Assembly (NCBI GenBank): GCA_030650095.1
Contig: JAUSEE010000036.1
Location: 6,490 to 70,489, forward strand
Direction of reading: 5' to 3'
DNA length: 64,000 bases
Source of the DNA: Candidatus Buchananbacteria bacterium
Lineage (GTDB): Bacteria; Patescibacteriota; Patescibacteriia; 2-01-FULL-39-33
This document shows positions 16,775 through 43,895 of this stretch, piece after piece; position 1 is the first letter of the stretch; each line of letters starts with the position of its first letter. The position numbers and the translations under genes were made by a program. The notes below the pieces were generated by a model that was not told the DNA's origin, ran no database searches, and was given only the letters and a program-made list of their open reading frames with translations.

Positions 16775-16802
16775 TTGACATTAATATTATTAAGAGTATA
16801 CT
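16775..16802 (+). promoter_or_regulatory. Sigma70-like promoter TTGACA-N16-TATACT for the small GC-rich gene at 16858
   Basis: ttgacattaatattattaagagtatact, 55 nt upstream of a strong Shine-Dalgarno sequence (aggagatcaatATG). Confidence 0.45.
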
Positions 16803-16857
16803 TCATTTACCGCTCTTTATTATGTTTTCTTGGCCAACAATCAGAAAGGAGATCAAT

Positions 16858-17043
16858 ATGCCACAGGAACAAAAATACGGACCACATTTTTTCGGAAAGG
16901 CAACATTTGTATCAGACTGCGCTATCGCTGAGTGCGCTTGCGGTGCTTCAGAAGGGGCAGTTTCGGGTTGCGGACCGACGCTCAGTCCTGCGCCAGATCC
17001 TTTGCCCGACCCGAGCCAATGCCGACTCAATCCCCTATCTTAA
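16858..17043 (+). CDS. Small Cys/Gly/Ala/Pro-rich peptide (61 aa) in a locally GC-rich segment, function unknown
   Basis: Strong Shine-Dalgarno sequence aggaga 5 nt from the ATG. Product MPQEQKYGPHFFGKATFVSDCAIAECACGASEGAVSGCGPTLSPAPDPLPDPSQCRLNPLS. Intrinsic terminator directly downstream. The supplied ORF starts at an earlier Met (16822) that lacks a Shine-Dalgarno sequence. Confidence 0.5.
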   Translation: MPQEQKYGPHFFGKATFVSDCAIAECACGASEGAVSGCGPTLSPAPDPLPDPSQCRLNPLS

Positions 17044-17057
17044 CCATCGCTCTTTCC

Positions 17058-17090
17058 CGCCTCACTCTCGTAGTGAGGTTTTTATTTTTT
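17058..17090 (+). terminator. Intrinsic terminator (cctcactctcgtagtgagg plus T-run)
   Basis: 8-bp stem followed by tttttatttttt. Confidence 0.6.
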
Positions 17091-17208
17091 TAATTTACCT
17101 TTACTTAAAACAAATAATAATTTATTTAATTATAACAGAAATAACTGGCCTTGTTAAATAAAAAACTCCAGAATAAATATCCCGGAGTTATTAATTGATG
17201 AAGAAAAA

Positions 17209-17676
17209 CTATTTACTTACTACCGCTAAAAAGCCTCTGTAGGCATCCCAAACCATATTGGAATAATCCAATCTCAAACAACGAAAATTTGTTTGAAAAA
17301 CATCCAAGCTGGCTACCGAAGAAAGGCTTCTGGAAAATTGCCAAACAGAACCTAAAGCGGAAATGGGCAGCTGTTTTTGAACTTCCGGATATTTAGCGCC
17401 AAAAAATAAAAGGTGTTCTATTTTGGCTAGCTGGCAATTGGCTTGTTTAATTTCAGCTATGACTTCAGCCGACTCAACAGAATGGTCAAAAGGAAAAACT
17501 CTTAAATCCGCTTCCATTTGCCCGCTGCCGATTATCGGAAAAGTTATTTTAGAAATATCATGATCAATTTCATAGTAACCACCCAAAGAAATCATTTGAT
17601 CGATAGTTAAATCATAATTAATCCTGATGGTAAATAATCTTTGCCTAATCCTATCACTAACAGCGTTGGAAAACAT
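17209..17676 (-). CDS. Hypothetical protein (155 aa)
   Basis: Intact ORF with a terminator hairpin plus T-run downstream at 17160-17205. No recognisable motif. Confidence 0.45.
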   Translation of the reverse strand: MFSNAVSDRIRQRLFTIRINYDLTIDQMISLGGYYEIDHDISKITFPIIGSGQMEADLRVFPFDHSVESAEVIAEIKQANCQLAKIEHLLFFGAKYPEVQKQLPISALGSVWQFSRSLSSVASLDVFQTNFRCLRLDYSNMVWDAYRGFLAVVSK

Positions 17677-17772
17677 GATTATTCCTCCTTGTGCCTATTG
17701 ATCTTTTTATGTAATGTGCTATCTCCTTCTAACTACCAAAGTTATAGCATATCCAAACGGATTGTCAACAAC

Positions 17773-19524
17773 TTATGATTCGCTCATCCTTAAGTCAATC
17801 ACTTTTAATTGCAATTCCTTGTGGCCATTCCACTCGTTTACGCCTATTTCAAAAACCACATCTATTTTGTCGCCGACATTCAATTTGGCGCACCAATCAC
17901 CAAAGGAAAAGCCGATTATCTTATGAATGACGGGATGATTAACTTGGCTAACCATGGCTCGCAAATGCTGGCCGTCGCCGCCCACTGTTTGGACCTGCTC
18001 GATATTCAAATTTTTAACCAAAAAAAGAGGGTTATTATTGCCTTCGCCAAAGGGTTCAAATTTTTCTAATTTATGGTAAAAATACCAATTGATGTCGGCT
18101 AACTCTATTTCTGCCTCGATTTTTAAAACCTTTCTTAAATCCAAATCTTTCAGGGCGCGGCTAGCAATCGCGCTTATTTTTTCCTTAAAGCCAAGCAAAT
18201 TGTCTTGGCCCAAAATAGTAAAACCGCAAGCTTGAGGATGTCCGCCGAATTTGTCCAAATATTCTTCACACTCATTAAGCGCGCTAGTGATGTCAAAACC
18301 TTCCACGCTTCGGCCCGAACCGATATATTTTATCGCCCCAGCTGAAACATCTTGATCACTGCTTTGGGAAATCACTATGGCCGGCAAATTGTATTTATCA
18401 CTTATTCGCCCGGCTACCAAGCCCACAACTCCGGGATGCCAATTCTGGCCGATCGCCATTAACAATTTCTTTTCCTTTACCTCGCCTATTTCATTTTCCA
18501 CTTCCTTAAGCATGCTGGCGGTTATGGATTGGCGTTTGGTATTCTCATCTTCTAATTGTTTCACTAGTCGATCTGATTCTTCAGCGTTTTCGGAAATTAA
18601 AAGTTCAAAAGCCAAGGAAGCGTGATTAATACGGCCAGCCGCATTGATCCTGGGCACTAAGCGCCAACCGATATATTGGGTATCCAGCTTGCCGCTGTAA
18701 TGATTAACTTTCTCAACTATTTTCATAATGCCGGCTCTTCTGGTTTTATCTAAAACTATCAAGCCGTATTTAACAAAAATCCTGTTTTCTCCAATAAGGG
18801 GCATAATATCGCCCACTGTGGCAATAGCCAAGAGATCTAAGAGCCATTTGTCAAAGCCAATGGGAATTTTATTAGCTAAGGCAAATTCAGCCTGTTTTTT
18901 AATCAGCCCTTGGACAACTTTAAAAGCTACGCCCGCCCCGCACAGCTTCTTAAAAGGATAATTAGAATCTTTAAGAGAAGGATTTATTATGGCCAGAGCG
19001 CCAAGGGGCAATTCGTCCGGCTCCTTATGGTGATCGGTCACAATCACCTCAACCTTATTGTCTTTAAAAAAGGCCACTTCATCTTTGTTGGATATGCCGC
19101 AATCAACCGTTATCACTAATTTATAACCGCCATCAATTATTTCCTTGGCCGCCGTCATATTAAGGCCGTAGCCCTCACCTTCCCTGAAGGGTATCCTGAT
19201 ACTGACTTGCGCTCCTAATTTTTTAAGCGCGCTGTATAAAATGGCGGTGGAACAAACGCCATCGGCGTCATAATCGCCATAAATCATTATCAGCTCATTA
19301 TTTTTAACCGCTTGCAAAATCCTCTCTACCGCCTTGGCCATATCATTAAATAAGAAAGGATCCAAAATCTGACTGTCATAATCGGGGTTTAAAAAATCAT
19401 TGATTGATTTGGCATCGTCAAATCCCCGGTTATGCAGCAATTGTAAAATTATCCTATTTTCTTCCGGCACACCTTTGATGGCACCGCTCTCTATAGGACT
19501 GGTAACCTGCCATTTTTTAGGCAT
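17773..19524 (-). CDS. recJ: Single-stranded-DNA-specific exonuclease RecJ (DHH/DHHA1)
   Basis: DHH motifs (…IMIYGDYDADGVCSTAIL…, ITVDCGISN, VIVTDHH) and DHHA1 (GGHPQACGF). Confidence 0.85.
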   Translation of the reverse strand: MPKKWQVTSPIESGAIKGVPEENRIILQLLHNRGFDDAKSINDFLNPDYDSQILDPFLFNDMAKAVERILQAVKNNELIMIYGDYDADGVCSTAILYSALKKLGAQVSIRIPFREGEGYGLNMTAAKEIIDGGYKLVITVDCGISNKDEVAFFKDNKVEVIVTDHHKEPDELPLGALAIINPSLKDSNYPFKKLCGAGVAFKVVQGLIKKQAEFALANKIPIGFDKWLLDLLAIATVGDIMPLIGENRIFVKYGLIVLDKTRRAGIMKIVEKVNHYSGKLDTQYIGWRLVPRINAAGRINHASLAFELLISENAEESDRLVKQLEDENTKRQSITASMLKEVENEIGEVKEKKLLMAIGQNWHPGVVGLVAGRISDKYNLPAIVISQSSDQDVSAGAIKYIGSGRSVEGFDITSALNECEEYLDKFGGHPQACGFTILGQDNLLGFKEKISAIASRALKDLDLRKVLKIEAEIELADINWYFYHKLEKFEPFGEGNNNPLFLVKNLNIEQVQTVGGDGQHLRAMVSQVNHPVIHKIIGFSFGDWCAKLNVGDKIDVVFEIGVNEWNGHKELQLKVIDLRMSES

Positions 19525-19589
19525 TTATATAAACTAAATAATTAATAATGCGTTAAATACAGATTGTATTTTACCAAAAACCGGCTTGA

Positions 19590-19618
19590 TTGACAATTGC
19601 CGATATTTTTATTACTAT
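19590..19618 (+). promoter_or_regulatory. Sigma70-like promoter TTGACA-N17-TACTAT
   Basis: ttgacaattgccgatatttttattactat. The predicted transcription start is a few nt before the ATG at 19630, so the small ORF would be nearly leaderless. Confidence 0.35.
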
Positions 19619-19629
19619 TGATAGTGTTA

Positions 19630-19725
19630 TGAAGAAACAAAAATTGCAAAAACTTATTTGGACAATCATAGTTATTATCATGATTTTATCAATGGTAATA
19701 TTCACTTTCGTTCCTTTATTTTAAA
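19630..19725 (+). CDS. Possible 31-aa hydrophobic peptide (MKKQKLQKLIWTIIVIIMILSMVIFTFVPLF)
   Basis: Immediately downstream of the predicted promoter. No Shine-Dalgarno sequence, so it may be leaderless. Single TM helix. Confidence 0.25.
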
Positions 19726-19749
19726 CGCCATCATAAAAGGAGCTAGGCC

Positions 19750-20082
19750 ATGGAAAATGACAAAAGGCAAAAACTGGAAATTGCCACGCTTAAAAGGCAA
19801 CTAAAGCGCGCCCAGCGGCACATTAAGAAATTAGAAAACATAGCCCGAATCAGGAAACAGGCTTATATAGATATCCGCGATGATGTTTCTCATGTTTGTG
19901 GGGAGTGGCTGGAATGTTTGTCTATTTTAGGCAAAAATTGGCGATCAAGATTCTTGGCTCAAAAGGCCTGGTTTGATTACAGTATGGATATTTTTCCAGT
20001 ATCACCAGAAGATCTAATGGACAAAATGAAGCAAAGCCGGCTCTTTGAAAACGGCGAAATACCCAAAATAAAAAACCTCTAG
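19750..20082 (+). CDS. Hypothetical basic protein (110 aa)
   Basis: Shine-Dalgarno sequence aaaggagctaggccATG. Product has no known motif (MENDKRQKLEIATLKRQLKRAQRHIKK…). Confidence 0.5.
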   Translation: MENDKRQKLEIATLKRQLKRAQRHIKKLENIARIRKQAYIDIRDDVSHVCGEWLECLSILGKNWRSRFLAQKAWFDYSMDIFPVSPEDLMDKMKQSRLFENGEIPKIKNL

Positions 20083-20115
20083 ATGATATCTGGGGGTTTT
20101 ATATTTTACTTATAT

Positions 20116-21903
20116 TTATTTTTTTAAGACCGCCAAGAAAGCATCTGAGGGTATATCCACTTTGCCAATATTCATCATTTTCTTTTTGCCTTTTTTCTGT
20201 TTCTCCAACAGTTTTTGCCTTCGGCTCCAATCTCCGCCATAAAGCTTGGCTGTAACATCTTTCTTTAAAGCCGATATCCTCTCGGCCGCAATTATCTTGC
20301 CATTTATGGCTGCCTGTATTTTAATCACAAACTGCTGTTTGTTTAATTCGTTCTTTAAAATATTCACTATCCTCTTGCCCACTTCGTTAGCGGAGTCCCT
20401 GTAGGTTATAAGGGAAAGCGCTTCTATTTTTTCTTCGGCTACCAGTATGTCCATTTTTACCACCTCGGCTTTTTGATAGCCGTAAAAATCATAATTCAAG
20501 CTGGCATAACCGGAAGAAACCGATTTTAACTTATCATAGAAGTCAACTATCAATTGGGTTAGGGGCACGTAGTAATGCAAAATGGCCACCTCCTGATCCA
20601 AGTATTCGGTATTGATGTAGGTCCCTCTTTTTTCCGTGGTCATTTGCATAATGCCGCCTAAATAATTTTTGGGCGTAAAAATATCAACCTGCATAATCGG
20701 CTCTTCCACATAATCTATGAAAGTCGGATCCGGAAATTCAACCGGATTATAAATAATTTTATGACTGCCGTCCTTATAAAAAACATTATAAGCCACACTG
20801 GGCGTGGTCACGATTAAATCCAGGTCGAACTCGCGGTTTAATCTTTCTTGGAAAATTTCCAAATGGAGCAGACCCAAGAAACCGCATCTAAAACCAAAAC
20901 CCAAGGCCTGGGAATTTTCCGGCTCGTACATGAGGGAGGCGTCGTTGAGTTTTAATTTTTCTATCGCCTCACGCAACTTGGAATAATCGCTGCCATCCTT
21001 ACAAAAAACCCCCGCAAAAACCATCGGCTTCACTTCTTGAAAACCAGGCAAAAGCTCTACCTGAGAACCTGATAAAGTAATGGTGTCGCCCACCTTCACT
21101 TGAGATACATCCCTTAGGCCTGTCACCACATAGCCTATTTCCCCTGTTTCCAATTTACCGCTCTTAACATACTGGGGCGAAAAATAACCGACTTCAATCA
21201 CATTGGCTAATTTTTTATTGGAAACAAATTTTATCTCCTGGCCGGTTTTAATCTCGCCTTCGAAAACCCGGATATAAGCGATCACACCTTTGTACTCATC
21301 ATAAGTGGAATCAAAAATAAGCGCCCGCAGATCTTTCCTCTCGGGCCACAAGTGCGGAGCCGGAACCTTTAAAATAACCGCCTTCAAAACTTCGGCCACG
21401 CCTTCGCCGGTTTTGGCTGAAACTTTATAAATTTCATCCTCCTTGCAACCCAAGATGCCCACGATTTCCCGGGCTACTTTTTCCACCTGCGAATTGGGCA
21501 AGTCTATCTTGTTGATTACCGGTATGATTTCTAAATTTTGATCCAAAGCCAAATACAAGTTAGCCAAGGTTTGCGCTTGTATGCCTTGAGTGGCATCAAC
21601 GAGTAGTATGGCCCCTTCCACCGACATCAAACTGCGCGAAACTTCATAGGTAAAATCAACATGGCCGGGAGTGTCGATTAAGTTTAATTCATAACCTTCA
21701 TAATTCATCTTAACCGGCTGCAATTTTATAGTGATGCCTCTTTCCTGCTCGATATCCATTTGATCCAAAATCTGGGCTTTCATATGCCTCTTATCAACTG
21801 TTCCGGTTATTTCCAACATGCGATCGGCTAAAGTGGATTTGCCATGATCAATGTGGGCAATAATGCAGAAATTTCTTATTTTTTCCTTATTTAATGCTGG
21901 CAT
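20116..21903 (-). CDS. lepA: Elongation factor 4 (LepA)
   Basis: N-terminus IRNFCIIAHIDHGKSTLADRMLE, GTPase motifs (DTPGHVDF, NKID) and the LepA-specific C-terminal domain. Confidence 0.9.
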   Translation of the reverse strand: MPALNKEKIRNFCIIAHIDHGKSTLADRMLEITGTVDKRHMKAQILDQMDIEQERGITIKLQPVKMNYEGYELNLIDTPGHVDFTYEVSRSLMSVEGAILLVDATQGIQAQTLANLYLALDQNLEIIPVINKIDLPNSQVEKVAREIVGILGCKEDEIYKVSAKTGEGVAEVLKAVILKVPAPHLWPERKDLRALIFDSTYDEYKGVIAYIRVFEGEIKTGQEIKFVSNKKLANVIEVGYFSPQYVKSGKLETGEIGYVVTGLRDVSQVKVGDTITLSGSQVELLPGFQEVKPMVFAGVFCKDGSDYSKLREAIEKLKLNDASLMYEPENSQALGFGFRCGFLGLLHLEIFQERLNREFDLDLIVTTPSVAYNVFYKDGSHKIIYNPVEFPDPTFIDYVEEPIMQVDIFTPKNYLGGIMQMTTEKRGTYINTEYLDQEVAILHYYVPLTQLIVDFYDKLKSVSSGYASLNYDFYGYQKAEVVKMDILVAEEKIEALSLITYRDSANEVGKRIVNILKNELNKQQFVIKIQAAINGKIIAAERISALKKDVTAKLYGGDWSRRQKLLEKQKKGKKKMMNIGKVDIPSDAFLAVLKK

Positions 21904-22014
21904 AAAATTAAATCGTTAGGCTACATCATAACAGGAAAAACTTTTAAAATCAAGGAGTTAGGCTATGCTTTTTAAGCTGATAAATAAACACTTCCTTTAA
22001 TCAGAAACATTTAA

Positions 22015-23715
22015 TTAAGCTCCAGTTCCCTCTTGACTGGTGTCCTCGATAACTTTGACATTCTTAAATAATTTACGTTGCAAAGAAGCCATAAATATAG
22101 CCATCTCTTCCATATGAAGCAGATAACCCAAAAGCCAATAACCCAAGAGGCCGACGCTGCCAGCCACAAATCCTTGCAAGAAAATGCCTAAAAAAGTTTC
22201 TGTCATCACAAATAGATCCAGGAGTTGCAAACAGTAGTAGGCGAAAAGCCCGGCGCCCAGAGACGAAAAGATTATCCTAATAGATGAATCCAGCATTTTA
22301 CGCCCGTCCAACCGGCCGATTTTTTTTCTAAGAGCCAGCATTAAAATAAACAAATTGAAAACAGCCGAAACAGAAATAGCCAGTGGCATAGCCAGCACTC
22401 GCAAATCAGTGGCATGCCAGAGATCGGGCACTTTTAAAATGGCGACCGTAAAAAAAGAAAACCAATTATCAAAACTAAAAACCCAGGCAAAGAAAAACAG
22501 GCAGCCCAAATTAACCAGCAAATCAATCAAACCGATGAAAAATGGCGTTTTGGTATTATGCAAAGCATAAAAGCCTCTGATAATAAGAGGCAAGGCGCCT
22601 TGAGCGAACAGGCTCAAAGCGAAGATAGCCAAAACAGCCGCTGTTAACCTGGTATCAATCCAACTAAACTCGCCGCTGCCCAAAATAACACGCACCACTT
22701 GGGCCCGCAAAACATAAAGCAGAATAGAAATCGGCACGGTAAAAAATAATATCTGCCTGAAGGTGGAAGAAAGAGTGGCCACAAAATCATCAATTTTTTT
22801 GCCGGCCGCCAAAGACGACAAAACCGGTAGAGCAGCTACGGCAAAAGAAACGCCAAAAATTCCCAAAGGAAAACTTTGCAAATTATTAGCCAAATTGTAG
22901 ATGGCCAAAGAACCGGCCATCAAGGTGGAAGCGAAAATAGTGGTAATCAAAAAATTAACCTGATTGATAACCAAGGTTAGGGTTCTAGGGATCATTAACT
23001 TTCCCACCTTTCTGACATTTTTATTTCTAAAGCCGAAAACTAATTTATATCTGTAACCGGTAAAGAAAGTGGCTGGCAACTGGATAATCATATGCATAAA
23101 AGAACCCAAAACCACGCCCCAGGCCAAACCGTAAATGCCAAAATAAGGCACCAGATACAAAGCGCCAACGATTATGCCAACATTGTAGAATACCGGCGCC
23201 AATGAATAAATAAAAAATCTTTTATACGATTGCAGAATTGAACTTAAAATAGCCGATAGTCCCAAGAAAATCGGAGACAAAAACATTATTTTGGACAATT
23301 TTATCACCACGGCCATTTTTTCCGGAGAAAAGCCGGGAGTTATCAGGGGCATCAGATAAGGAGCGCTAAAAAATAAAATAACGCAAACTGTTATGATAGC
23401 TACAAAAGCAATGTTTAAAATGCTATTGATAAAATGCCAGGCTTCTTTTTTATGGTCGAATTTTTTATCCAAAAGAGCCGTAAAAACCGGAATGACGCCG
23501 GCCGAAATCGCTCCTAAAATCAAAAGGTTGTAAACCAAATCAGGCAAACGAAAAGCGGCATAGTAAGCGTCCAGCACATCGCCGGCGCCGAATTGGGAAG
23601 CTAAAACCCTGTCCCTGAACACTCCCAAAAACCGGCTAACCAAAGACAAGGCACCGATAATAATGGCCGCTGAAGTGATTGTTTTAGCTTGTGAATTTAT
23701 TAATTTTTTAAACAC
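22015..23715 (-). CDS. murJ: Lipid II flippase MurJ (MviN)
   Basis: 566 aa, polytopic. N-terminus …RFLGVFRDRVLASQFGAGDVLDAYYAAFRLPDLVYNLL… is the canonical MurJ motif. Confidence 0.85.
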   Translation of the reverse strand: MFKKLINSQAKTITSAAIIIGALSLVSRFLGVFRDRVLASQFGAGDVLDAYYAAFRLPDLVYNLLILGAISAGVIPVFTALLDKKFDHKKEAWHFINSILNIAFVAIITVCVILFFSAPYLMPLITPGFSPEKMAVVIKLSKIMFLSPIFLGLSAILSSILQSYKRFFIYSLAPVFYNVGIIVGALYLVPYFGIYGLAWGVVLGSFMHMIIQLPATFFTGYRYKLVFGFRNKNVRKVGKLMIPRTLTLVINQVNFLITTIFASTLMAGSLAIYNLANNLQSFPLGIFGVSFAVAALPVLSSLAAGKKIDDFVATLSSTFRQILFFTVPISILLYVLRAQVVRVILGSGEFSWIDTRLTAAVLAIFALSLFAQGALPLIIRGFYALHNTKTPFFIGLIDLLVNLGCLFFFAWVFSFDNWFSFFTVAILKVPDLWHATDLRVLAMPLAISVSAVFNLFILMLALRKKIGRLDGRKMLDSSIRIIFSSLGAGLFAYYCLQLLDLFVMTETFLGIFLQGFVAGSVGLLGYWLLGYLLHMEEMAIFMASLQRKLFKNVKVIEDTSQEGTGA

Positions 23716-23784
23716 TTGACAAATTAGTTTATTTATTGTAGCATCTTGATATCAGCATTGAACATTCAACAAGAGGAGAAAATA

Positions 23785-27658: not shown

Positions 27659-27755
27659 AAGTCTTCTCCTTTTGGTTGTTTTCTAAAGTGCTAGCTTATA
27701 TTTATACCAGTGGAGCAAATTTGTCAATTGGATTAAATAAACCATTATACCATTA

Positions 27756-27990
27756 TGTCATTGCAATCCGCCCTGGGCCGCAATGACAAATTACTCCTCC
27801 CCTTGGAAAGGGGAGGCCGGGGAGGGGTTTTTGAGGCATCAGTATAAACCTCCCCCTAACCCCTCCCTGCCTACCGGTAGCACGCCGCCAGAGGCTATGG
27901 CCGACGGAGCGCAGGCAGGCTTGACCAGGAGGGGAAAATAAAAAATAAAAAAACCCGCAAGTGCATCTCTGCAATTGCGGGGGGTAATTT
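27756..27990. other. GC-rich structured non-coding segment (hairpins gtcattgcaatccgccctgggccgcaatgac, ctcctccccttggaaaggggagg and cccgcaagtgcatctctgcaattgcggg)
   Basis: No convincing ORF. The local GC is much higher than the flanks. Begins with a GTCATTGC…GCAATGAC hairpin related to the repeat family. Confidence 0.35.
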
Positions 27991-28008
27991 AATCAAAAAG
28001 AACTAATT

Positions 28009-28890
28009 TTAATAAACCTGGAAATCGATATCAACATCGATTTCCCCCAGCCAGTTAACTGGCGCGTAGGGAATGTGCATCGGCCCATCGCCTGTGACGT
28101 CAAAGACGCTGAAGGCGAGACCGGAAGCGTAGTACTTGTCATTTGCGTCTTGCGCGATGACAGCCGATTCATCCAGCGAGCCGGAGAAATCAATCGGCAA
28201 ATAAGCCGAGAAGACGATAGACGAGTTACCGTACCAGTCATACCAGCGATAATAGTCGGCGTAATAATCGTTATCGCCGTCGATAATCGAGGCTTGGCCG
28301 AAATCGCCATACTCGCCGGGCAGGCCGTCGACAACAAACCGAAACTGCAAGTAATTAGTCAACTGAAAAACCACCTGCAAAGTCGATGACATGCCAAGTC
28401 CCACTTCTATGTAAGAGTTGGCGTAAAAGTACAGGATCCCGTCCTGACCGTAGGCGCTGACATAAACATCATACGCTCCCGGCCTAATCAGGAAACTGCC
28501 CTGGAAGACGCCGTCAACCACATCGATAACAAAATCCTGTCCTCCCATGCCGCCTCCGCCGCCTCCGCCGCCGCTGTCGCCACCTTTGTTGGTGCTATCT
28601 TCGGTGGGAATGGGAACAGGAACATTCGCCGGCCAAAACGAGAACTGCATGGTGGTGATCTGAGGTTTCAGATGATCCACTATGGAGTTCCAGTTGATTG
28701 CCGTACCGGTATCCGCCTTGTCAGCCGAAACCTGGATCAACGACTTTGTCGCATTGAGATCGCCCTGGACAGTCACCTGTCCAAAGCCGGCCGGGATACT
28801 GCTATCCGGAACTTGGTTAACTGGCGCCGTCGGGCAACCAGCCAAAGCCAAGACCGCTATCAACACCAGACATACAATCTGCTTTCTCAT
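28009..28890 (-). CDS. Lipoprotein paralog with a poly-Gly tract, GC-richer than the copy at 25960
   Basis: Shine-Dalgarno sequence aaggagaaagacgATG at 28890. MRKQIVCLVLIAVLALAGCP… lipobox. GGDSGGGGGGGGMGGQD tract. C-terminal blocks shared with 25960-26730. Confidence 0.6.
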   Translation of the reverse strand: MRKQIVCLVLIAVLALAGCPTAPVNQVPDSSIPAGFGQVTVQGDLNATKSLIQVSADKADTGTAINWNSIVDHLKPQITTMQFSFWPANVPVPIPTEDSTNKGGDSGGGGGGGGMGGQDFVIDVVDGVFQGSFLIRPGAYDVYVSAYGQDGILYFYANSYIEVGLGMSSTLQVVFQLTNYLQFRFVVDGLPGEYGDFGQASIIDGDNDYYADYYRWYDWYGNSSIVFSAYLPIDFSGSLDESAVIAQDANDKYYASGLAFSVFDVTGDGPMHIPYAPVNWLGEIDVDIDFQVY

Positions 28891-34831: not shown

Positions 34832-34900
34832 GTCATTGCGAACGAAGTGAAGCAATCTCATGTTTATATCAACTGGGATTGCTTCGTACCTCGCAATGAC
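34832..34900. repeat. Palindromic repeat element (GTCATTGCGAAcgaagtgaagcaatc … gattgcttcgtacCTCGCAATGAC)
   Basis: Near-perfect 69-bp inverted repeat. Same family as 49693 and 51553. The flanking modules (tttatttcac / aatgacataaaagacaatgg) are also shared with the copy at 55874. Confidence 0.65.
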
Positions 34901-34923: not shown

Positions 34924-36129
34924 TTATTTCATATTTAAAGCTCCGGGGCGCAAAACAGTTATCCGGCCTGATACCACTTTAATCAAAGCTGATAGCTGGC
35001 TTACTACTTTCCCCTGGTCAATATAAAAATCAACATTATTGCTAAAATATCTTTTGGCTTGCTTGATGGTTAGGGCTGGCTCCTGGCCTTCAGGATTAGC
35101 GCTGGGCGCTACCAAGGGACCGGTTTTTTTAAGCAGCGCCATAAGCCAACTATTATTGGGCCATCTGAAAGCCAGCGAATCGGTGCCCCGATGAAGATAG
35201 GATAATTTTTTGTCGCAATTTAAAATAATGCTCACCGGCCCCGGCCAGTATTTTTTTATGATTTTTTCGGTCGGCTGATCGATTTTTACGCCGAATTTTT
35301 TTAAGTCAGCCAAAGAACTGATTAAAATTATAAAAGGCTTATCCGGATTTCTCTTTCTAATCTTATAAATCCTTCCTACCGCCTTTTTATCCCAAGCTCG
35401 CCCGACTAAGCCGTAAATGGTATCGGTGGGAATAATGCCAACACCGCCTTTTTTTAGAATATCAATTCTTTGAGCCAAATATTTTTTAGCCAAGGCTTCC
35501 AAACTTATAGCTTGGTTAATCTTAAAATTTCCAACTCTGGTTCTTTTTAAACTGGACATATAAGCACCCGTTGATAAGCTTGTACCTATATCCCTAGCCA
35601 ATGATCTGATGTAAACTCCCGGGCCGGTAACAACTTTTATTTTAAGATCGGGCCATTTGTATTTTAAAATTTTAAGGCTCTTAATTTCCACCGGCCGAGA
35701 TTTTAATTCCACCGGCCGGCCGGACCGGGCTAATTTGTAAGCCCGCTCCCCGCCAAGCCTAATGGCGCTGTAAGCCGGCGGAACCTGGCTAATTGTACCG
35801 ATAAAATTTTTAACAACACTATTAATCTCCTTAAGAGTTATAGGCCGTACATTAGGCGTTTTATTCTTTCGGCCTTCGCTGTCATCAGTGCTGCTGGATA
35901 AGCCCAGTTTGATGCCCGCAATATATTCTTTTTCTTTTTCAACTATTTGGCTTAATTTTTTAGTGGCTTCCCGGCCCAAACCGACCACTAAAACGCCCTC
36001 GGCCAAAGGATCCAAAGTGCCGGCATGGCCCACACTCGGCTCGCCGGTGGATTTTTTTATTTTATTTATAATACCAAAAGAACTTATTCTTTTAGGCTTA
36101 CTGATGGTAAAAATATTGACTGCTTTCAT
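34924..36129 (-). CDS. Fusion protein: TruB-like tRNA pseudouridine(55) synthase catalytic domain (N-terminal) joined to a TsaC/YrdC/Sua5-like L-threonylcarbamoyladenylate synthase domain (C-terminal)
   Basis: N-terminal half: GHAGTLDPLAEGVLVVGLG, YIAGIKLGLSSSTDDSEG and ISQVPPAYSAIRLGGERAY, which are TruB motifs. C-terminal half: KKGGVGIIPTDTIYGLVGRAWDKKAVGRIYKIRKRNPDKPFIILISS, the YrdC signature. No PUA domain. Confidence 0.7.
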   Translation of the reverse strand: MKAVNIFTISKPKRISSFGIINKIKKSTGEPSVGHAGTLDPLAEGVLVVGLGREATKKLSQIVEKEKEYIAGIKLGLSSSTDDSEGRKNKTPNVRPITLKEINSVVKNFIGTISQVPPAYSAIRLGGERAYKLARSGRPVELKSRPVEIKSLKILKYKWPDLKIKVVTGPGVYIRSLARDIGTSLSTGAYMSSLKRTRVGNFKINQAISLEALAKKYLAQRIDILKKGGVGIIPTDTIYGLVGRAWDKKAVGRIYKIRKRNPDKPFIILISSLADLKKFGVKIDQPTEKIIKKYWPGPVSIILNCDKKLSYLHRGTDSLAFRWPNNSWLMALLKKTGPLVAPSANPEGQEPALTIKQAKRYFSNNVDFYIDQGKVVSQLSALIKVVSGRITVLRPGALNMK

Positions 36130-36953: not shown

Positions 36954-36980
36954 AAAGCTTTGAATAATTCAGAGCTTTTT

Positions 36981-38234
36981 TTAATTTGTTTTAGCCGAGT
37001 TAATTCCGCCGACATAAAATCTTTTTCTTCTTTGGCGCCGGCTAGCCGCATTGCCAAAGCGGTGAGCTTCATCACGCGCCTTGGTTAATACTCCCCTCTG
37101 TGACTCGGCTAATTCCCTTATGGCGCGACTGGCCTTAGCCGGGAACACCATTCTGTCTCCGGCTAATTTGGATAAGCCGATAATGGGGATGTTGATATTT
37201 ATCTTTTTTAAAATATTATTAATGTAATCAATTTGAGGGCGTCCGCCATCAATCAAAATAAGATTGGGGAAGGGCCATTCCACATGCTTGAATCTTCTGA
37301 TAACCATTTCAGCCAAGGCTCTTAAATCATCGCTGGCCGGCGCCTCTTTGATATTAAACAAACGGTATTGATCTTTGGCCAACTGGCCATCTAAGACAAC
37401 CGACATAGCTCCGACAGTTTCTTTGCCGGTAAAGTGCGATATGTCATAACCCTCAACTCTGTTTTTAAAGGCGGTATCATTAAATTCGTCTTTGGTGATT
37501 AAAGTCACGTCCTGAATATTTTTTAAAACGCTGGCCAGCGGCGGATTTTCTTTTTTTAATTTATTCAATAGTCTTTTCTTTTCACCTTTAAAGAGTAAAA
37601 TTATGTTTTTGATATTTTTGCTGTAATCGTTTTTGGCTATCTTGCCCACGCAAGTTCCCGGGCACAAGCCCACCTGATAATCAAAGCAAGGCTGGCCGGA
37701 ATTGGGAGTACAAGTGCTGTAAGGAAAAATTCGCCTGATAAGCCTTAGGGCGTTTTTAAGCAAAGTCGCGTTTTGATAGGGCCCGAAAACATGGGCCGAG
37801 GAAGTGGGAAATTTTTTAAGTTCCCTTTCACGCGCGATAATCGGATAAGCGTAATCCTTTTTGGGAATAACCACAAAAACAAAAGACCGGTGGTCTTTAT
37901 CTTTGACATTATACTTGGGCCAATGTTTTTTAATCAGGTTGGCTTCCAAAATTATGGCTTCCAAAACCGTATCGGTTTTTTGGTGTTTGATGTTCTTGGC
38001 CAAAGAAACCATTTCCGCAATGCGCGGATCAATATCTTGACGGAAATATTGGGCAACGCGCCGGCGCAGGCTGGTAGCACGGCCAATATAAAGAATCTCG
38101 CCCTTTGGGCCGATAAACATGTAAACTCCGGAAGAGAGCGGTAAATTACTTGCCCTATTAAATAAATTTGTCTTCGACAAATTTCCCGCCAAGCGGGTTT
38201 TAATAGGGTGAACTTTTTCTTTTAAGCTTTTCAT
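36981..38234 (-). CDS. uvrC: Excinuclease ABC subunit C homolog (short form lacking the C-terminal HhH domain)
   Basis: N-terminal GIY-YIG (SGVYMFIGPKGEILYIGRATSLRRRVAQYF), the UvrC Cys motif (CFDYQVGLCPGTC), the UvrBC-interaction region and an RNase H-like endonuclease domain. Only 417 aa. Confidence 0.75.
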   Translation of the reverse strand: MKSLKEKVHPIKTRLAGNLSKTNLFNRASNLPLSSGVYMFIGPKGEILYIGRATSLRRRVAQYFRQDIDPRIAEMVSLAKNIKHQKTDTVLEAIILEANLIKKHWPKYNVKDKDHRSFVFVVIPKKDYAYPIIARERELKKFPTSSAHVFGPYQNATLLKNALRLIRRIFPYSTCTPNSGQPCFDYQVGLCPGTCVGKIAKNDYSKNIKNIILLFKGEKKRLLNKLKKENPPLASVLKNIQDVTLITKDEFNDTAFKNRVEGYDISHFTGKETVGAMSVVLDGQLAKDQYRLFNIKEAPASDDLRALAEMVIRRFKHVEWPFPNLILIDGGRPQIDYINNILKKININIPIIGLSKLAGDRMVFPAKASRAIRELAESQRGVLTKARDEAHRFGNAASRRQRRKRFYVGGINSAKTN

Positions 38235-38249
38235 TAGTTCTTCTTACTA

Positions 38250-38278
38250 TTGACAAAAGATGTTAAATGTGATATAAT
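38250..38278 (+). promoter_or_regulatory. Perfect consensus sigma70 promoter TTGACA-N17-TATAAT
   Basis: ttgacaaaagatgttaaatgtgatataat, about 55 nt upstream of the ATG at 38336. Confidence 0.6.
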
Positions 38279-38335
38279 TAAAAGTTGAGTGAAGCACCTT
38301 GTGGTAATTTAACTTAAAAAATGGAGGGAAGAAAA

Positions 38336-38536
38336 ATGTTTCTCTGGGTTATTTTGACCGAACTGCACAGTGGCCTTGTCAGCGAAATGAAAGCGGCTGT
38401 GGACATTATGCAAGAGACCTATCAGGCCCATGGCCGCGGTCTGGCGCCTCGTCCCCTCCGCGGGCTGGTCTTTGCCACCGACTCCCCCATCCCAGAAGAC
38501 TATCACCAGCTTCTGGGAATCCTGCCCTTTAACTAG
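38336..38536 (+). CDS. Small GC-rich gene encoding a 66-aa hypothetical protein
   Basis: Shine-Dalgarno sequence ggaggg. Consensus promoter upstream and an intrinsic terminator downstream. Product MFLWVILTELHSGLVSEMKAAVDIMQETYQAHGRGLAPRPLRGLVFATDSPIPEDYHQLLGILPFN. GC is far above the flanks. Confidence 0.5.
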   Translation: MFLWVILTELHSGLVSEMKAAVDIMQETYQAHGRGLAPRPLRGLVFATDSPIPEDYHQLLGILPFN

Positions 38537-38555
38537 GCAGACAAAGTATTTTTTG

Positions 38556-38590
38556 GCTCTTGTGGATAATACCACAGGAGCCTCTTTTAT
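38556..38590 (+). terminator. Intrinsic terminator (ggctcttgtggataataccacaggagcc plus T-run)
   Basis: 9-bp stem followed by tcttttattt. Confidence 0.6.
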
Positions 38591-38633
38591 TTATTGCAAA
38601 ATTGTTATACTCTAAGGAGATGGAGGACTAATC

Positions 38634-38825
38634 ATGAATATAGCGCACGACTTGTTTTGGTGCCTGGGTTTGGCCCTGATTATAATGGGCATCACCTATA
38701 CCGTCAGATTGTACCGGGAAAGTTTTGAGAATAATTTGTTTAGAATTCCCTGGGATGCAATCGTAGTTTTGACTATAGGAATTATTATGTACATTATCAG
38801 TTTCTTTATCCCTATTATACATTAA
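38634..38825 (+). CDS. Small membrane protein (63 aa)
   Basis: Strong Shine-Dalgarno sequence aaggagatggagg. Two TM helices. Confidence 0.5.
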   Translation: MNIAHDLFWCLGLALIIMGITYTVRLYRESFENNLFRIPWDAIVVLTIGIIMYIISFFIPIIH

Positions 38826-38838
38826 AATAGGGATTTTT

Positions 38839-41451
38839 TTATCTCAAATATTCTTTCAAATATTTTCCGGTAATGCTTTTTTCATTTTTCATTATTTCTT
38901 CCGGCGTGCCCTTGGCTACCACATACCCCCCTTTGTCTCCGCCTTCCGGCCCCAGATCAATCACATAATCGGCAGCATGGATAATGTGCATATTATGTTC
39001 TATAACCGCAATGCTGTTTTGCCTGTCTATTAATTTATTCAAAACCTGAAGCAATAGTTCTATATCGTGATAATGTAGCCCAACCGTCGGCTCATCCAAC
39101 AGATACAAAGTTTTACGTCCCAAAGTATGGGTTAATTCCCGGGCTAATTTTATCCTCTGGGCTTCACCGCCGGAAAGAGTGGTAGCGCTTTGTCCCAGTT
39201 TCAAATAACCCAGTCCCACTTCTTGCAAAACTTTTAATTTATCAGTTATCTGATAATGGCTGTCAAAATAGCCAATGGCTTCATCAATGGTCAAAGCCAG
39301 AACTTCGGCAATATTTTTACCTTTATACTTAACTTGCAGAGTTTCTCGATTGAATCTTTTGCCATGACAAACTTCGCATTCAACCGTAACAGCCGGCAAG
39401 AAATGCATTTCAATAAGATTAGAACCGGCGCCATCACAAGCCTCGCAACGTCCGCCCGGACGATTAAAAGAAAACCTGGATAAGGTATAGCCTTTCTCCC
39501 GCGACTCTGGCAAGAGGGCAAAAAATTCCCTGACAGGAGTAAAAATACCGGTGTAAGTGGCCGGATTGGAACGAGGCGTTCGGCCAATGGGCGATTGATC
39601 AACTATAACCACCCTACTTATATAATCCGTGCCCATAATTTTGGACACATTTTCCAATTCATTTTTTTTAACGCTGCTGGCCAAGCGCGGATTAGCTTTT
39701 ATTTTCTGGACATTGCGGTACAGCACATCATAAAGCAAAGATGATTTGCCACTGCCGGAAACGCCAGTTAGACAGACCATTTTCCTTAATGGAATATCCA
39801 CCTGGATATTTTTTAAATTATTAGCTCGGGCGCCGATTATTTTAATCGCTTCGCTGGTAGAAGTCCGCCTGTTTGAAGCTGTCTCGATAAATCTGTCACC
39901 GCGCAAATAATCCAAAGTCATGGATTTTTGAGAGTTGCCTTTCTTAAGCAGTTCTTTGGTTTCGCCTATGGCTACCACCTCTCCCCCGTGGCTGCCGGCC
40001 AGCGGCCCCAAATCCACTAGAAAATCAGAAGCCCTGATGGTTTTTTCATCATGTTCAACTATAATAACCGAATTGCCTTGGTCTTTTAACGATTTTAAAG
40101 TTTTAATCAATTTGTCGGTGTCTCTTTCATGCAAGCCGATTGTCGGCTCATCCAAAACATACAATGTCTTTGACAGATGCGAGCCGATTTGCGAACCCAG
40201 CCTTATTCTTTGCGCTTCACCGCCCGAAAGAGTTTCAGCTTCCCGGCTAAGCGACAAATAATTCAAGCCGACTTGCAAAAGAAAATCCAAGCGATCGGCA
40301 ATTTCAATTACCACATTCTCGGCGATTTCCTTCTGCCGAGCACTCATCTTACTATGATAGGCCACAAAAAAATCATAAGCTTGTAAAATAGACATGGCGC
40401 TAACCTCGGCTATATTCTTGCCGCCTATTCTAACCGACAAAGACTCGGCTCTCAACCTCTGGCCATGACAAACAGGGCAGGGCTCAACCTCTTTTTCATA
40501 CTGGTTTTGGTATTCGCCCACCTCTTTGCCTTCTTCGTCTAATTTCTTTTTATTTTCCCATAATTCCAATTTGCCCAGACCGTGGCATTTTTCACAAGCG
40601 CCGTGCGGACTGTTGAAAGAAAACAATCTAGGCTCCACTTCCGGAAAAGCAAAGCTGTCATTGGGACAAGTCCAATTAGCAGATAATAAAAATTCTGGGC
40701 TGTCTCCTACCTTGGCAGACAAGTTTTTCTTCTCCCTAAATAAAGCCACAGCCAAACCGCTGGCATAATTGACAGCATTTTCTACCGCTTCCGACAAACG
40801 GCCTTCATCGTTAATCATCACTTTATCAATAATAATATCAATGCTGTGCTTACTGTGCCTGGCCAATTTTATTTTCTCATGCAGAGAATGGAACCGGCCG
40901 TCTATCCTGGCTTCGCCAAAACCTAAACTAAGATAATCATAAAGCAGTTGGTAGTATTCGCCTTTTCTATCTATAACCACCGGGGCTAAAATGGTAACGT
41001 ACTCTTCGTCCAGTTCCTTGGCTCGAGATTTTATGATATCAATCATTTCATCCAAAGCCAGCTTGTCGATTTTATGATCGCATTTTGGGCAATAGACTTC
41101 GCCTAACCTGGCATACAAAACGCGCAAATAATCGTAGATCTCGGTGAGAGTGCCTACAGTAGAACGAGGATTATGCGACAAGGCTTTTTGATCTATGGAA
41201 ATCGACGGCGCCAAGCCGATTATTTCATCAACATCAGCCGGTTTCATCTGGCCCAAAAATTGCCGAGCATAGGGAGACAATGATTCAATATAACGCCTCT
41301 GGCCTTCGGCAAAAATAGTATCAAAAGCCAAGGAAGATTTGCCGCTTCCCGACACACCCGTAAAAACCACCAGCTTATTATGCGGTATTTCCAGACTTAT
41401 ATTTTTTAAATTGTGCACCCGCGCCCCGCGGATGATTATGCTATCTTTCAT
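38839..41451 (-). CDS. uvrA: Excinuclease ABC subunit A
   Basis: [54 protein letters not shown]…. Two ABC ATPase modules with Zn-finger insertions. Confidence 0.9.
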
Positions 41452-41454
41452 AGA

Positions 41455-41483
41455 TTGACATTTTATGATAATTGAAGTACGAT
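41455..41483 (+). promoter_or_regulatory. Sigma70-like promoter TTGACA-N17-TACGAT
   Basis: ttgacattttatgataattgaagtacgat, about 100 nt upstream of the ATG at 41587. Confidence 0.4.
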
Positions 41484-41586
41484 TTAACTTAATTTGGAAC
41501 TTTATAACTTAATATTTATATTGCCAAGCGAACAAGTATTGTATCACCAAGTCCACCAACGGTCAACATTAAGGAGGAAACTGACA

Positions 41587-42033
41587 ATGAACTCGAAAAT
41601 ATTCAAAAGGCCTTATTCCAAAGTGGAAATAACCGATCACAGCATCTCCGGTAATATGCTTTTCCGCAAAATAGAATCATGGCTGGAAGCGGAACCATCG
41701 GTGCTGATCTGGGAGACCAGTTACTACGAACCCCCGGCAATGCAGGGATTCGACAGCCAGAAACGGGAGATCGCTGTGCCAAGATACGGCTGGACGATTG
41801 AATTCCAATTTGATCGAGCCAATGCCGCTGCCAAAGACGGATACTATGATGGCGTCGCCATTATCGCCGGAACCATCACGCACAGTCTGGAAATAGCCGG
41901 TGAAAAATCCCGGGAAGCTTACAAATTATCCTGTAGCTCGCGTAACTTTCGGGGAGAAGCGACTTTCACATCAGCCGTTGAACTCTGGAAAACATTCACC
42001 AATTTGGGACTAAGAAAAACCACCACACCCTAA
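41587..42033 (+). CDS. GC-rich (about 50%) gene encoding a 148-aa hypothetical protein
   Basis: Shine-Dalgarno sequence aaggaggaaactgacaATG. Intrinsic terminator (accgcggtaaattatcgcggt plus T-run) at 42034-42060. No recognised motif. The supplied ORF begins at the earlier Met at 41494. Confidence 0.55.
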   Translation: MNSKIFKRPYSKVEITDHSISGNMLFRKIESWLEAEPSVLIWETSYYEPPAMQGFDSQKREIAVPRYGWTIEFQFDRANAAAKDGYYDGVAIIAGTITHSLEIAGEKSREAYKLSCSSRNFRGEATFTSAVELWKTFTNLGLRKTTTP

Positions 42034-42056
42034 CCGCGGTAAATTATCGCGGTTTT

Positions 42057-43895
42057 TTATTTCTCCACCACATCCAGCATGTTTTCAATGTCTTTTATAA
42101 TCGTCTGAGGAGTAATTTTATGTTTCTTATTATAAGCCAACTGTAATTTTCTTCTTCTGGCCACCTCTTCAATCGCCCGTTTCATGGAGCCGGTTTTCTT
42201 ATCGGCATACAAAATAACCTGGCCCAAAACATTTCTGGCCGCCCGCCCCATGGTTTGAATAAGTGCTTCCTCGCTGCGCAAAAATCCTTCCCGGTCGGCA
42301 TCCATAATCGCCACGAGCGTTACTTCCGGCAAATCCAAACCTTCACGCAAAAGATTGACACCCACCAAAATATCAAACTGGCCTTCCCTGAATTCTTTAA
42401 GTATTTCTGTTCGGCGGAATGTTTTAATATCCGAATGAAGATAACTGGCCTTGAAGCCGTTTTTTTGCAAATAAGAATCAAGGTCTTCGGCCATTTTTTT
42501 GGTGAGGGTGTTAACAATCGCTCTTTCGCCTTTTTTCACAACCCTTTTCAACTCCTCGATTAAATCATCCACCTGGCTCTTATTCTTCTGCCTATCATAA
42601 ACCGATCTGATTTCAATGGGCGGATCCACTAAGCCGGTTGGACGGATAACTTGCTCAACTGTCTTTTTGGAATTGCTTATTTCCCATTTGCCCGGCGTAG
42701 CCGAGGTAAAAATAGTCGGGCCGATACGCTGTAAAAATTCATTGAATTTCAGCGGCCGGTTATCCAAAGCGCTGGGCAGGCGCCAGCCGTATTTAATCAG
42801 GTTTTCTTTTCGAGCGTGATCGCCTTCATACATGCCTCTCACCTGCGGCAAGCCGATGTGTGATTCGTCCATAATCAAAGTAAAATCGGGCCGGCCGTTT
42901 TTATCTTTGGGAAAATAAGACAAAAGAGAATCAGGCGCTTCTCCGGCCAGCTTGCCGGTTAGGTGGCGCGAATAATTTTCAATGCCATGGCAGTAGCCCA
43001 AGCTTCTTAACATTTCCATGTCATATTTTGTCCGCCTCTCCAATCTTTCGGCTTCCAAATATAAATTATTCTTTTGAAAATATTTCAATCTGTCTTTTAA
43101 TTCGTTCTTAATGTCTCCGATAGCCCTGGCAATTTCCGGTTTGGTGGAAATAAAATGCTTAGGCGGAAAAATAATTATATCCTGCAAGCCTTCTATAATA
43201 TGCCTGGAAACTTTATCAACGATGCCGATGTCAACAACTTTTTGCTCGGCCAACTCTATCCGATAAATCACATCTTCGGCCGCCGGCCTGATTTCAAAAA
43301 CATCGCCCCGCACCCTGAAAGATCCCCTTTTTAATTCTCCCATCGTCCTGGCAAATTGGATTTTAATCAATTGGGCGATTAAATCCCGCCTCACAATATT
43401 ATGCCCGACTTCCAAATGAAGCGATGACTGGGTATAACTCACCGGCAAACCTAAATTATAAATACAAGAAACAGACGCCACAATAATGACATCGCGCCTG
43501 GTGGCAAGAGCCGCAGTAGCTTGGTGCCTTAAGCGGTCGATTTCTTCGTTGATCATGGCTTCTTTTTCTATATAGGTATCACTGGAGGGCATATAGGCTT
43601 CCGGCTGATAATAATCATAATAAGAAACGAAATAATTAACGCTATTTTTGGGAAAGAAATTTTTATATTCGCGATAAAGCTGAGCCGCCAAAGATTTGTT
43701 AGGCGCCATTACCAAAACAGGCCGATTGAAATTGGCTATAACACTGGCTGAAGTGAAAGTCTTGCCTGATCCAGTTACTCCCAAAAGAGTTTGAAAATCA
43801 TGGCCGCTTTTTAAGCCGCTGATCAATTCTTTTATAGCCTTGGGCTGATCGCCGGCCGGCTTATACTTAGATTTTAACTTGAATATTTTTTCCAT
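42057..43895 (-). CDS. uvrB: Excinuclease ABC subunit B
   Basis: MEKIFKLKSKYKPAGDQPKAIKELISGLKSGHDFQTLLGVTGSGKTF… aligns from residue 1 with UvrB. Helicase motifs are present. The start codon lies 2 nt after the tRNA-Val 3' end. Confidence 0.9.
   Translation of the reverse strand: MEKIFKLKSKYKPAGDQPKAIKELISGLKSGHDFQTLLGVTGSGKTFTSASVIANFNRPVLVMAPNKSLAAQLYREYKNFFPKNSVNYFVSYYDYYQPEAYMPSSDTYIEKEAMINEEIDRLRHQATAALATRRDVIIVASVSCIYNLGLPVSYTQSSLHLEVGHNIVRRDLIAQLIKIQFARTMGELKRGSFRVRGDVFEIRPAAEDVIYRIELAEQKVVDIGIVDKVSRHIIEGLQDIIIFPPKHFISTKPEIARAIGDIKNELKDRLKYFQKNNLYLEAERLERRTKYDMEMLRSLGYCHGIENYSRHLTGKLAGEAPDSLLSYFPKDKNGRPDFTLIMDESHIGLPQVRGMYEGDHARKENLIKYGWRLPSALDNRPLKFNEFLQRIGPTIFTSATPGKWEISNSKKTVEQVIRPTGLVDPPIEIRSVYDRQKNKSQVDDLIEELKRVVKKGERAIVNTLTKKMAEDLDSYLQKNGFKASYLHSDIKTFRRTEILKEFREGQFDILVGVNLLREGLDLPEVTLVAIMDADREGFLRSEEALIQTMGRAARNVLGQVILYADKKTGSMKRAIEEVARRRKLQLAYNKKHKITPQTIIKDIENMLDVVEK

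Follow-up and report, generated by a model that had tools for sequence, protein, structure and literature searches.

The 64-kb stretch of DNA analysed here (hereafter, the window) comes from an uncultured groundwater bacterium, Candidatus Buchananbacteria (Patescibacteria / Candidate Phyla Radiation, CPR); it has a GC content of 40.4% and carries almost every gene on the minus strand. On its plus strand lie three small open reading frames (ORFs), all flanked by DNA-repair genes: ORF1 (16858–17043, 61 amino acids), ORF2 (38336–38536, 66 amino acids) and ORF3 (41587–42033, 148 amino acids). The uvr genes are arranged in the order uvrB(−), ORF3(+), uvrA(−), ORF2(+), a gene for a 63-residue membrane protein(+) and uvrC(−), with uvrB at 42057–43895 (Pfam UvrB, UvrB_inter, Helicase_C), uvrA at 38839–41451 (UvrA_inter, ABC_tran) and uvrC at 36981–38234 (GIY-YIG, UvrC_RNaseH_dom). 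ORF1 lies with a gene for a 155-residue protein between recJ (17773–19524, minus strand; DHH, DHHA1, RecJ_OB) and the RNase HI-like gene rnhA (16372–16806, minus strand; RVT_3, RNase_H). A preliminary description of this DNA had placed ORFs of these lengths at these coordinates, with products unrelated in sequence to each other; the translations agree, and we found no similarity among the three products.

Each ORF was said to possess a sigma70 promoter, a Shine-Dalgarno sequence and an intrinsic terminator, and all of these were found, the terminators as hairpins followed by a T run. The label 'near-consensus' fits the promoters of ORF1 (TTGACA-16-TATACT, 16775–16802, 11 of 12 matches) and ORF2 (TTGACA-17-TATAAT with a TG extension, 38250–38278, 12 of 12 and the sole perfect match in 64 kb); that of ORF3 (TTGACA-17-TACGAT, 41455–41483, divergent from uvrA) is weaker at only 10 of 12. 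Promoter-like sites matching at least 11 of 12 positions number nine in the window, compared with 3.1 ± 1.5 in shuffles, and the only two on the plus strand are those of ORF1 and ORF2. A Shine-Dalgarno core, AGGAG or GGAGG, stands 5–10 nucleotides before the ATG of all three ORFs (in ORF1 as AAGGAG, 6 nucleotides before it); the same test is positive for 11 of 45 window genes and for 6% of all ATGs, and the presence of the core at all three ORFs is informative because it is a minority feature among window genes. The terminators lie at 17059–17087 for ORF1 (8-bp stem, 15 nucleotides past the stop codon), at 38555–38592 for ORF2 (11-bp stem with 7 GC pairs) and at 42032–42062 for ORF3 (10-bp stem), the last in a convergent zone shared with the end of uvrB.

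In GC content, ORF1 (0.538), ORF2 (0.562) and ORF3 (0.481) exceed the window (0.404). The preliminary description had seen here a compositional anomaly against an AT-rich background; the GC excess stands, but a background of 40% GC is not strongly AT-rich. About 20 islands of at least 0.52 GC (180-nucleotide frame) occur in the window, several of them within ordinary genes, and the three ORFs fall within the upper GC tail of the window but are not unique. Gene by gene, all three depart from typical synonymous codon usage (z = −5.0, −3.3 and −4.0 for ORF1, ORF2 and ORF3, respectively), and the GC content at third codon positions (GC3) is normal in the first, raised in the second and mildly raised in the third: the excess of ORF1 sits in codon positions 1 and 2, through its Gly/Ala/Pro/Cys content (GC3 0.42), that of ORF2 in positions 1 and 3 (GC3 0.66, z = +3.2 given its amino acids), and the mild excess of ORF3 in all positions (GC3 0.53, z = +2.5). 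No repeats connect the three ORF regions with one another or with the GC-rich repeat elements of the window, and a link between the ORFs and those elements was rejected, there being no sequence similarity.

Protein-coding evidence for ORF2 came from synteny. A word-indexed protein database search with ORF2 returned only the query itself; tblastn of syntenic loci in relatives (given here as L numbers) identified an ortholog at the same site in L002, with 44% identity. Differences between the window and L002 fall on the first, second and third codon positions as 27/16/45, both gaps are whole codons, and the proportion of non-synonymous differences (0.36) is lower than that of synonymous ones (0.79). 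ORF2 also displays a 3-base periodicity (p = 0.003). Both the homolog and the substitution pattern indicate that ORF2 is a real protein gene under purifying selection. An AlphaFold2 (AF2) prediction of ORF2 from its single sequence was uninformative, with only an N-terminal helix modelled confidently.

The surroundings of ORF2 are shared with L002, in which TTGACA-17-TGATATAAT, GGAGG, the ORF, a terminator hairpin, a TGTTATACT box and the membrane gene follow in the same layout. This membrane gene (38634–38825, plus strand; NCBI hypothetical protein Q7K65_03640), which follows ORF2 and encodes a two-helix protein, is preceded by a TGTTATACT extended −10 box and a Shine-Dalgarno sequence in both the window and L002; homologs of it occupy the equivalent position in L001, L002 and L003. 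The promoter of ORF2 and its transcript start are homologous in the window, L002, L039 and L001, and the ORF behind the conserved promoter belongs to the ORF2 family in the window and L002, is a membrane ORF of about 51 residues in L001 and is an unrelated GC-rich ORF of 128 residues in L039. Another pair of small opposite-strand ORFs, of 62 and 76 residues and visibly similar to each other, is present in the uvrA-uvrC junction of a different sub-lineage (L005, 12831–13019, and L006, 12828–13058, both on the minus strand).

The high GC3 of ORF2 recurs in the L002 ortholog, which has a GC3 of 0.56 where 0.34 is expected (z = 4.0), in a genome of 36% GC. Since both orthologs show the excess despite saturated synonymous sites, it is a maintained property and not the relic of a recent donor. 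The idea that these are genes under unusual constraint, also raised in the preliminary description, thus survives for ORF2 only, and its suggestion of structured mRNAs gained no support.

ORF3 (NCBI hypothetical protein Q7K65_03650), whose product matches, residue for residue, a hypothetical protein from a Candidatus Buchananbacteria metagenome-assembled genome, represents a very rare, uncharacterised alpha/beta family. In L001, L161 and L163, as in the window, a family member stands upstream of uvrA on the other strand, which makes four genomes; in L161 and L163, other genes have also been inserted, and cysS instead of uvrB is found on the far side. ORF3 is missing from L002 and L003, two relatives no more distant from the window than L001. 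This distribution indicates a long-term resident with losses, not a recent arrival. Between L161 and L163 the ratio of non-synonymous to synonymous substitution rates of ORF3 is about 0.12, compared with 0.04 for UvrA, and in close pairs its non-synonymous divergence is 5–6 times that of UvrA. In the alignment of the window with L001, ORF3 shows 42–68% identity between flanks at 77–90%, and its promoter region is 77–90% identical to that of L001. Together with the homologs and a 3-base periodicity (p = 0.01), these comparisons indicate that ORF3 is a real protein, weakly constrained yet under purifying selection. Identity in ORF3 does not scale with identity in UvrA; replacement of ORF3 alleles by recombination was considered and set aside as unnecessary, since the distances are accounted for, within error, by rapid evolution under weak constraint that reaches a plateau.

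Beyond the query's own entry, six ORF3 homologs were found at 46–55% identity, and an exhaustive profile search of 1.84 billion proteins gave only 12 representatives (E ≤ 0.001), including one spurious repeat protein. A distant member in L167 lies on a contig whose small genes are tightly packed and include phage-family matches, another in L169 has an unrelated bacterial context, and scans of viral contigs for ORF3 and for the 155-residue protein found no match. These searches indicate that the family is rare and scattered. The AF2 model of ORF3 (predicted local distance difference test score, pLDDT, 82) runs from a helix through a seven-stranded antiparallel sheet to a second helix; Foldseek with this model returned nothing at E < 0.1 from PDB or BFVD (best PDB E value 0.16, TM-scores < 0.3), none of the 14 family members matched Pfam, and PDB sequence searches with ORF3 profiles gave chance antibody matches only. 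An alignment of the 14 members has invariant residues G22, K28, W69, G95 and Y112 and no catalytic-looking motif; from this lack of conserved catalytic-type residues, our guess is that the ORF products would be small binding or structural accessory proteins.

In Escherichia coli, uvrA and ssb form a divergent gene pair. ORF3 is likewise a gene of about 150 codons divergent from uvrA with a short common control region, since ORF3 and uvrA stand 135 bp apart with back-to-back promoter-like sites; unlike ssb, however, ORF3 has no signal in Pfam of a single-stranded DNA-binding protein (SSB) or of an oligonucleotide/oligosaccharide-binding (OB) fold. The candidate identity as an SSB or OB-fold protein was rejected, with no Pfam match in the 14 members and structural matches to PriB and Whirly at chance level (TM-scores 0.12–0.20).

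For comparison of the junctions, we retrieved 80 Patescibacteria loci via UvrA. The order uvrB-uvrA-uvrC is a widespread tight cluster, with both junctions shorter than 100 bp in at least 14 loci, and the ORFs do occupy junctions that are tight in many relatives, in keeping with their earlier description as inserted between minus-strand genes. Across the phylum, 57 uvr junctions of 300–3000 bp carry assorted small ORFs, 51 on the same strand and 41 on the opposite one. Two relatives have candidate mobile genes in these junctions, namely a phage-type integrase in L163 (3388–4203) and an IS200-like (Y1 transposase) ORF in L039 (13358–14014), the latter at 22.2 bits, just below the Pfam cut-off of 23; uvr junctions may be insertion hot spots. 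At the other site, recJ and rnhA are adjacent, about 90 bp apart, in both relatives obtained, L081 (RecJ 76% identical) and L083 (47%), and ORF1 and the 155-residue gene are missing there, so these two make up a lineage-specific segment of about 1 kb. None of the three ORFs thus has syntenic homologs in all relatives: presence at the site is patchy for ORF2 (in L002, not in L001 or L003) and ORF3, and ORF1 has no homolog in any relative locus compared. The word 'isolated', which had been applied to all three, fails for ORF2, which is followed on the same strand by the conserved membrane gene, and for ORF1, which shares its segment with the 155-residue gene.

These patterns bear on whether the ORFs are recently acquired foreign cargo, as the preliminary description had proposed, that is, GC-rich imports from a higher-GC donor that have not yet drifted to host composition. 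Such an origin would fit the atypical synonymous codon usage of all three, the absence of ORF1 and the 155-residue gene from L081 and L083, the lack of ORF1 homologs, and a GC excess of the window ORF3 that its homologs do not share; the distant ORF3 relatives in the phage-like contig L167 and in the unrelated bacterial context of L169, and the integrase and transposase ORFs in the same uvr slots of relatives, also point that way. However, ORF3 is syntenic with uvrA across genomes whose UvrA is 71% identical, and the ORF2 ortholog keeps its GC3 excess at saturated synonymous divergence, which argues for maintenance and not slow drift. Of the marks of an acquired island, atypical composition and codon usage are present, but the window has neither mobility genes nor flanking direct or terminal inverted repeats at these sites, only short repeats compatible with chance; ORF1 DNA has no match in phage and plasmid collections, and viral contigs yielded none for ORF3 or the 155-residue protein. 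We therefore regard recent acquisition as rather unlikely overall: it is contradicted for ORF3 by synteny and for ORF2 by its saturated ortholog, and is possible only for ORF1 and the 155-residue gene.

That variable slots between core genes can hold small genes specific to a lineage is a general concept, and we consider it fairly probable that the three ORFs are of this kind: three unrelated, independently transcribed, lineage-restricted small accessory genes, in variable slots that split repair-gene clusters, products of ordinary turnover in a genome with many uncharacterised genes, and not one system. Each ORF would be a monocistronic unit with a sigma70 promoter, a short 5′ untranslated region containing the Shine-Dalgarno sequence and an intrinsic terminator, and would be transcribed head-on against the repair genes; with such head-on units within the cluster, each repair gene would need its own promoter or read-through. 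ORF3 would encode a folded alpha/beta protein of about 150 residues, inherited next to uvrA in its clade and lost in some members, ORF2 would be a 66-residue protein expressed from a conserved, perfect extended −10 promoter, with its high GC3 as a maintained property, and ORF1 would be a singleton transcription unit. The products would be small accessory proteins, our likeliest guess being small binding or structural ones.

Small lineage-specific genes are abundant in Patescibacteria (PMC9132574), and those described between core genes resemble the ORFs studied here in small size, lack of a family assignment, narrow distribution and patchy presence at a fixed position among close relatives. 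In contrast to such genes generally, the slots here break up DNA-repair clusters that many relatives keep tight, the perfect promoter of one slot persists with changing ORFs behind it, and ORF2 retains its GC3 excess across saturated divergence.

Several observations weigh against ordinary turnover of three small genes. All three ORFs adjoin DNA-repair genes, a placement that may be meaningful and that plain turnover leaves unexplained. The GC enrichment of ORF3 is confined to the window copy, its homologs matching their own genomes, and this shift is likewise unexplained. Searches of the small products, including alternative frames and antisense ORFs, against Pfam, PHROGs, PADLOC and NCBIfam found no family apart from one marginal PHROG match of ORF1 (E = 0.0098), so no function is assigned; in the same four databases, a toxin-antitoxin or defence pairing of ORF2 with the membrane protein, or of ORF1 with the 155-residue protein, has no match beyond that marginal one, and the 155-residue protein itself has none. 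NCBI annotation includes the membrane gene and ORF3, whereas for ORF1 and ORF2 the only gene calls are those of Logan; the Logan contigs derive from the same sample as the window, with 100% identity, and hence are not independent strain data.

The remaining points on that side concern ORF1, a Cys/Gly/Ala/Pro-rich orphan whose coding status is unproven. Its only match among 5.8 billion proteins is itself, it has no 3-base periodicity (p = 0.16), and its codon usage (z = −5.0) is no better than that of the other frames; it thus has neither homologs nor an intrinsic coding signal, and it is possibly not translated. The ORF1 segment has two open plus-strand frames, and a 75-residue antisense ORF overlaps ORF1. 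Translation is suggested only by the Shine-Dalgarno sequence with its ATG and by the terminator just past the stop codon. A role of the Cys-rich product as precursor of a ribosomally synthesised and post-translationally modified peptide found no backing in the neighbourhood, where the genes encode RNase H, RecJ and the 155-residue and a 620-residue protein without a Pfam family, and no modifying enzyme.

ORF1 could accordingly be a non-functional or decaying remnant, a chance ORF in GC-rich DNA between promoter-like and terminator-like sequences. It is a singleton with neither a periodicity nor a fold signal, it is known from Logan gene calls and not from NCBI annotation, and promoter-like sites are common, with 10 in the 2-kb region around ORF1 compared with 5.4 expected. 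Yet four signals coincide there in order and spacing, namely the 11-of-12 promoter, a strong, optimally spaced Shine-Dalgarno sequence, an ORF that fills the unit and the terminator shortly past its stop, and a Shine-Dalgarno sequence of this kind accompanies few ATGs in the window; we judge such a remnant to be unlikely.

A further alternative is that at least one GC-rich unit specifies a structured non-coding RNA and not a protein, with ORF1 as the likeliest candidate. Structured RNAs are classically sought as GC-rich islands that carry a promoter and a terminator of their own within a genome of lower GC; ORF1 lacks codon periodicity and typical codon usage, long ORFs arise by chance in GC-rich DNA, as the two open plus-strand frames of its segment illustrate, and full-length ORF2 transcripts are more stably folded than shuffled sequence (z = −3.8 and −4.3). 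However, the terminator and an uneven composition inflate the whole-transcript scores, and the orthologs disagree in the z-score of the ORF2 coding region alone (−0.59 in the window, −3.69 in L002; two sequences only). ORF1 gives fold z-scores of −0.17 on the plus strand and −0.61 on the minus strand, and the ORF3 transcript one of −0.88 against shuffles. With Rfam 15, the window matches at gathering score are RNase P and tRNA-Val only, and the three regions have no match even at E ≤ 10 other than chance-level ones below the gathering score; nor was a non-coding RNA with covariation support found, an outcome that the preliminary description had allowed for. Substitution patterns of the protein type in ORF2 and ORF3, and a well-placed Shine-Dalgarno sequence and ATG in all three, also speak against an RNA gene, which we consider very unlikely.

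The opposed orientation of the ORFs leads to another possibility, that they act as head-on antisense regulators. Strongly promoted opposite-strand units would then overlap read-through or long-leader transcripts of uvrA-uvrC, uvrB-uvrA and rnhA, with tuning by polymerase collision and cleavage of double-stranded RNA and with the encoded peptide secondary. An arrangement of this kind, the noncontiguous operon or excludon, was reportedly set out by Saenz-Lahoya and colleagues in 2019. It is defined by a polycistronic transcript that spans and overlaps the mRNA of an interspersed gene, with reciprocal regulation (PMC7154746, where the concept is described). The likeness lies in the layout: here, too, opposite-strand genes are interspersed between co-oriented, functionally related genes (uvrA, uvrC). 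The difference is that the noncontiguous operon is defined by co-transcription and reciprocal regulation; the flanking genes here may simply be separate units.

Evidence at both junctions can be read in favour of antisense control. A scan of the minus strand detected no terminator from the stop codon of uvrA to the start codon of uvrC, and four genomes share the ORF2 promoter, although the ORF that follows is not the same in all of them. At the recJ-rnhA junction, a minus-strand promoter (TTAACA-17-TATAAT with TG, 17129–17157, 11 of 12 matches), which is directed through ORF1 antisense to rnhA, would give rnhA a leader of about 350 nucleotides wholly antisense to ORF1; this promoter adjoins the terminator (17164–17189) of the 155-residue gene (17209–17676, minus strand), which also has its own promoter (17768–17741). 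On the other hand, purifying selection acts on the proteins encoded by ORF2 and ORF3, which shows that these products matter; plausible promoters belonging to uvrA itself are present, and the near-equal numbers of same-strand and opposite-strand ORFs in uvr slots show that head-on placement is no rule. Antisense control as the main function is, in our view, decidedly improbable. A bolder version is highly doubtful: that the conserved, perfect extended −10 promoter of the Buchananbacteria uvrA-uvrC junction fires head-on into transcription of the repair genes and, with an interchangeable, often GC-rich small ORF behind it, forms an antisense control device for nucleotide-excision-repair genes in CPR, that the GC3 of ORF2 would reflect selection on an RNA duplex or mRNA stability and not on the protein alone, and that, separately, ORF3 would be a new fold tied to UvrA with phage-borne relatives.

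Other features of the window and of its relatives were recorded alongside. The window UvrC is a short form of 417 residues that combines a GIY-YIG with an RNase H-like endonuclease domain; relatives have 391–413 residues where the ORF start is clear. A tRNA-Val(CAC) gene (43897–43971, minus strand) ends 1–2 nucleotides before the uvrB start codon (43895), and uvrB may be co-transcribed with it. The longest rnhA ORF starts at 16806 and relatives align only from residue 12–13; the true start is probably the ATG at 16770. A 28-nucleotide exact direct repeat (GTAGCTTCGCCAATATATTTTTTAA...) occurs inside rnhA (16643–16670) and in the end region of the gene at 56035–58587 (56011–56038). Shine-Dalgarno sequences in the window are mostly a stereotyped AAGGAG. 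Most housekeeping genes have AT-rich upstream sequence, often with a TATAAT-like box 5–12 nucleotides before the ATG, and the sequence suggests that many window mRNAs are leaderless; examples from this survey of start regions are the genes at 1789–3828, 38839–41451 and 56035–58587.

An intergenic palindromic repeat family (TGTCATTGCGAGC...GAAGCAATCCCA...TGGGATTGCTTC...GCAATGACA) is found at 27757–27787, 34832–34900, 49693–49771 and 51553–51621. One copy lies in the intergenic GC maximum of the window (27721–28003; 0.617 in a 180-nucleotide frame), which is rich in CCCCTCC/GGAGGGG palindromes and whose upstream neighbour is a lipoprotein-like gene (28009–28890), itself GC-rich and with a poly-Gly run. 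In L001, UvrA (8208–10880) and UvrB (4922–6976) contain in-frame extra segments, such as NNPPLGEGRAGRGLPKTTATTPNPLLGKDGASS and SLRAKRSEAKQSHGNKNKIASPPSRGPAPLPYS, that resemble translated GC-rich palindromic repeats inserted in essential genes, like Rickettsia palindromic elements. The RNase P RNA (13709–14192, minus strand; class A, 160 bits) measures 484 nucleotides against a 367-nucleotide model, with an AT-rich insertion of about 130 nucleotides in one hairpin, further insertions and its own promoter (TTGACA-17-TACAAT, 14230–14202). A 401-residue protein (34924–36129, minus strand) joins TruB (pseudouridine synthase) domains to a Sua5/YciO/YrdC domain, a fusion of two tRNA-modification functions.

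As they stand, our findings do not challenge current understanding. ORF2 is a real small gene that, along with ORF1, is missing from the NCBI-sourced proteins of this genome, and ORF3 defines a rare family of about 150 residues with a confident model and no known relative. Of modest interest are the conserved promoter with differing ORFs behind it and the GC3 of ORF2, kept across saturated divergence. Repair-gene clusters that are tight in many Patescibacteria appear as slots for the turnover of small genes, and their head-on layout would be of interest if antisense transcription does couple to uvr expression in these organisms with very small genomes.

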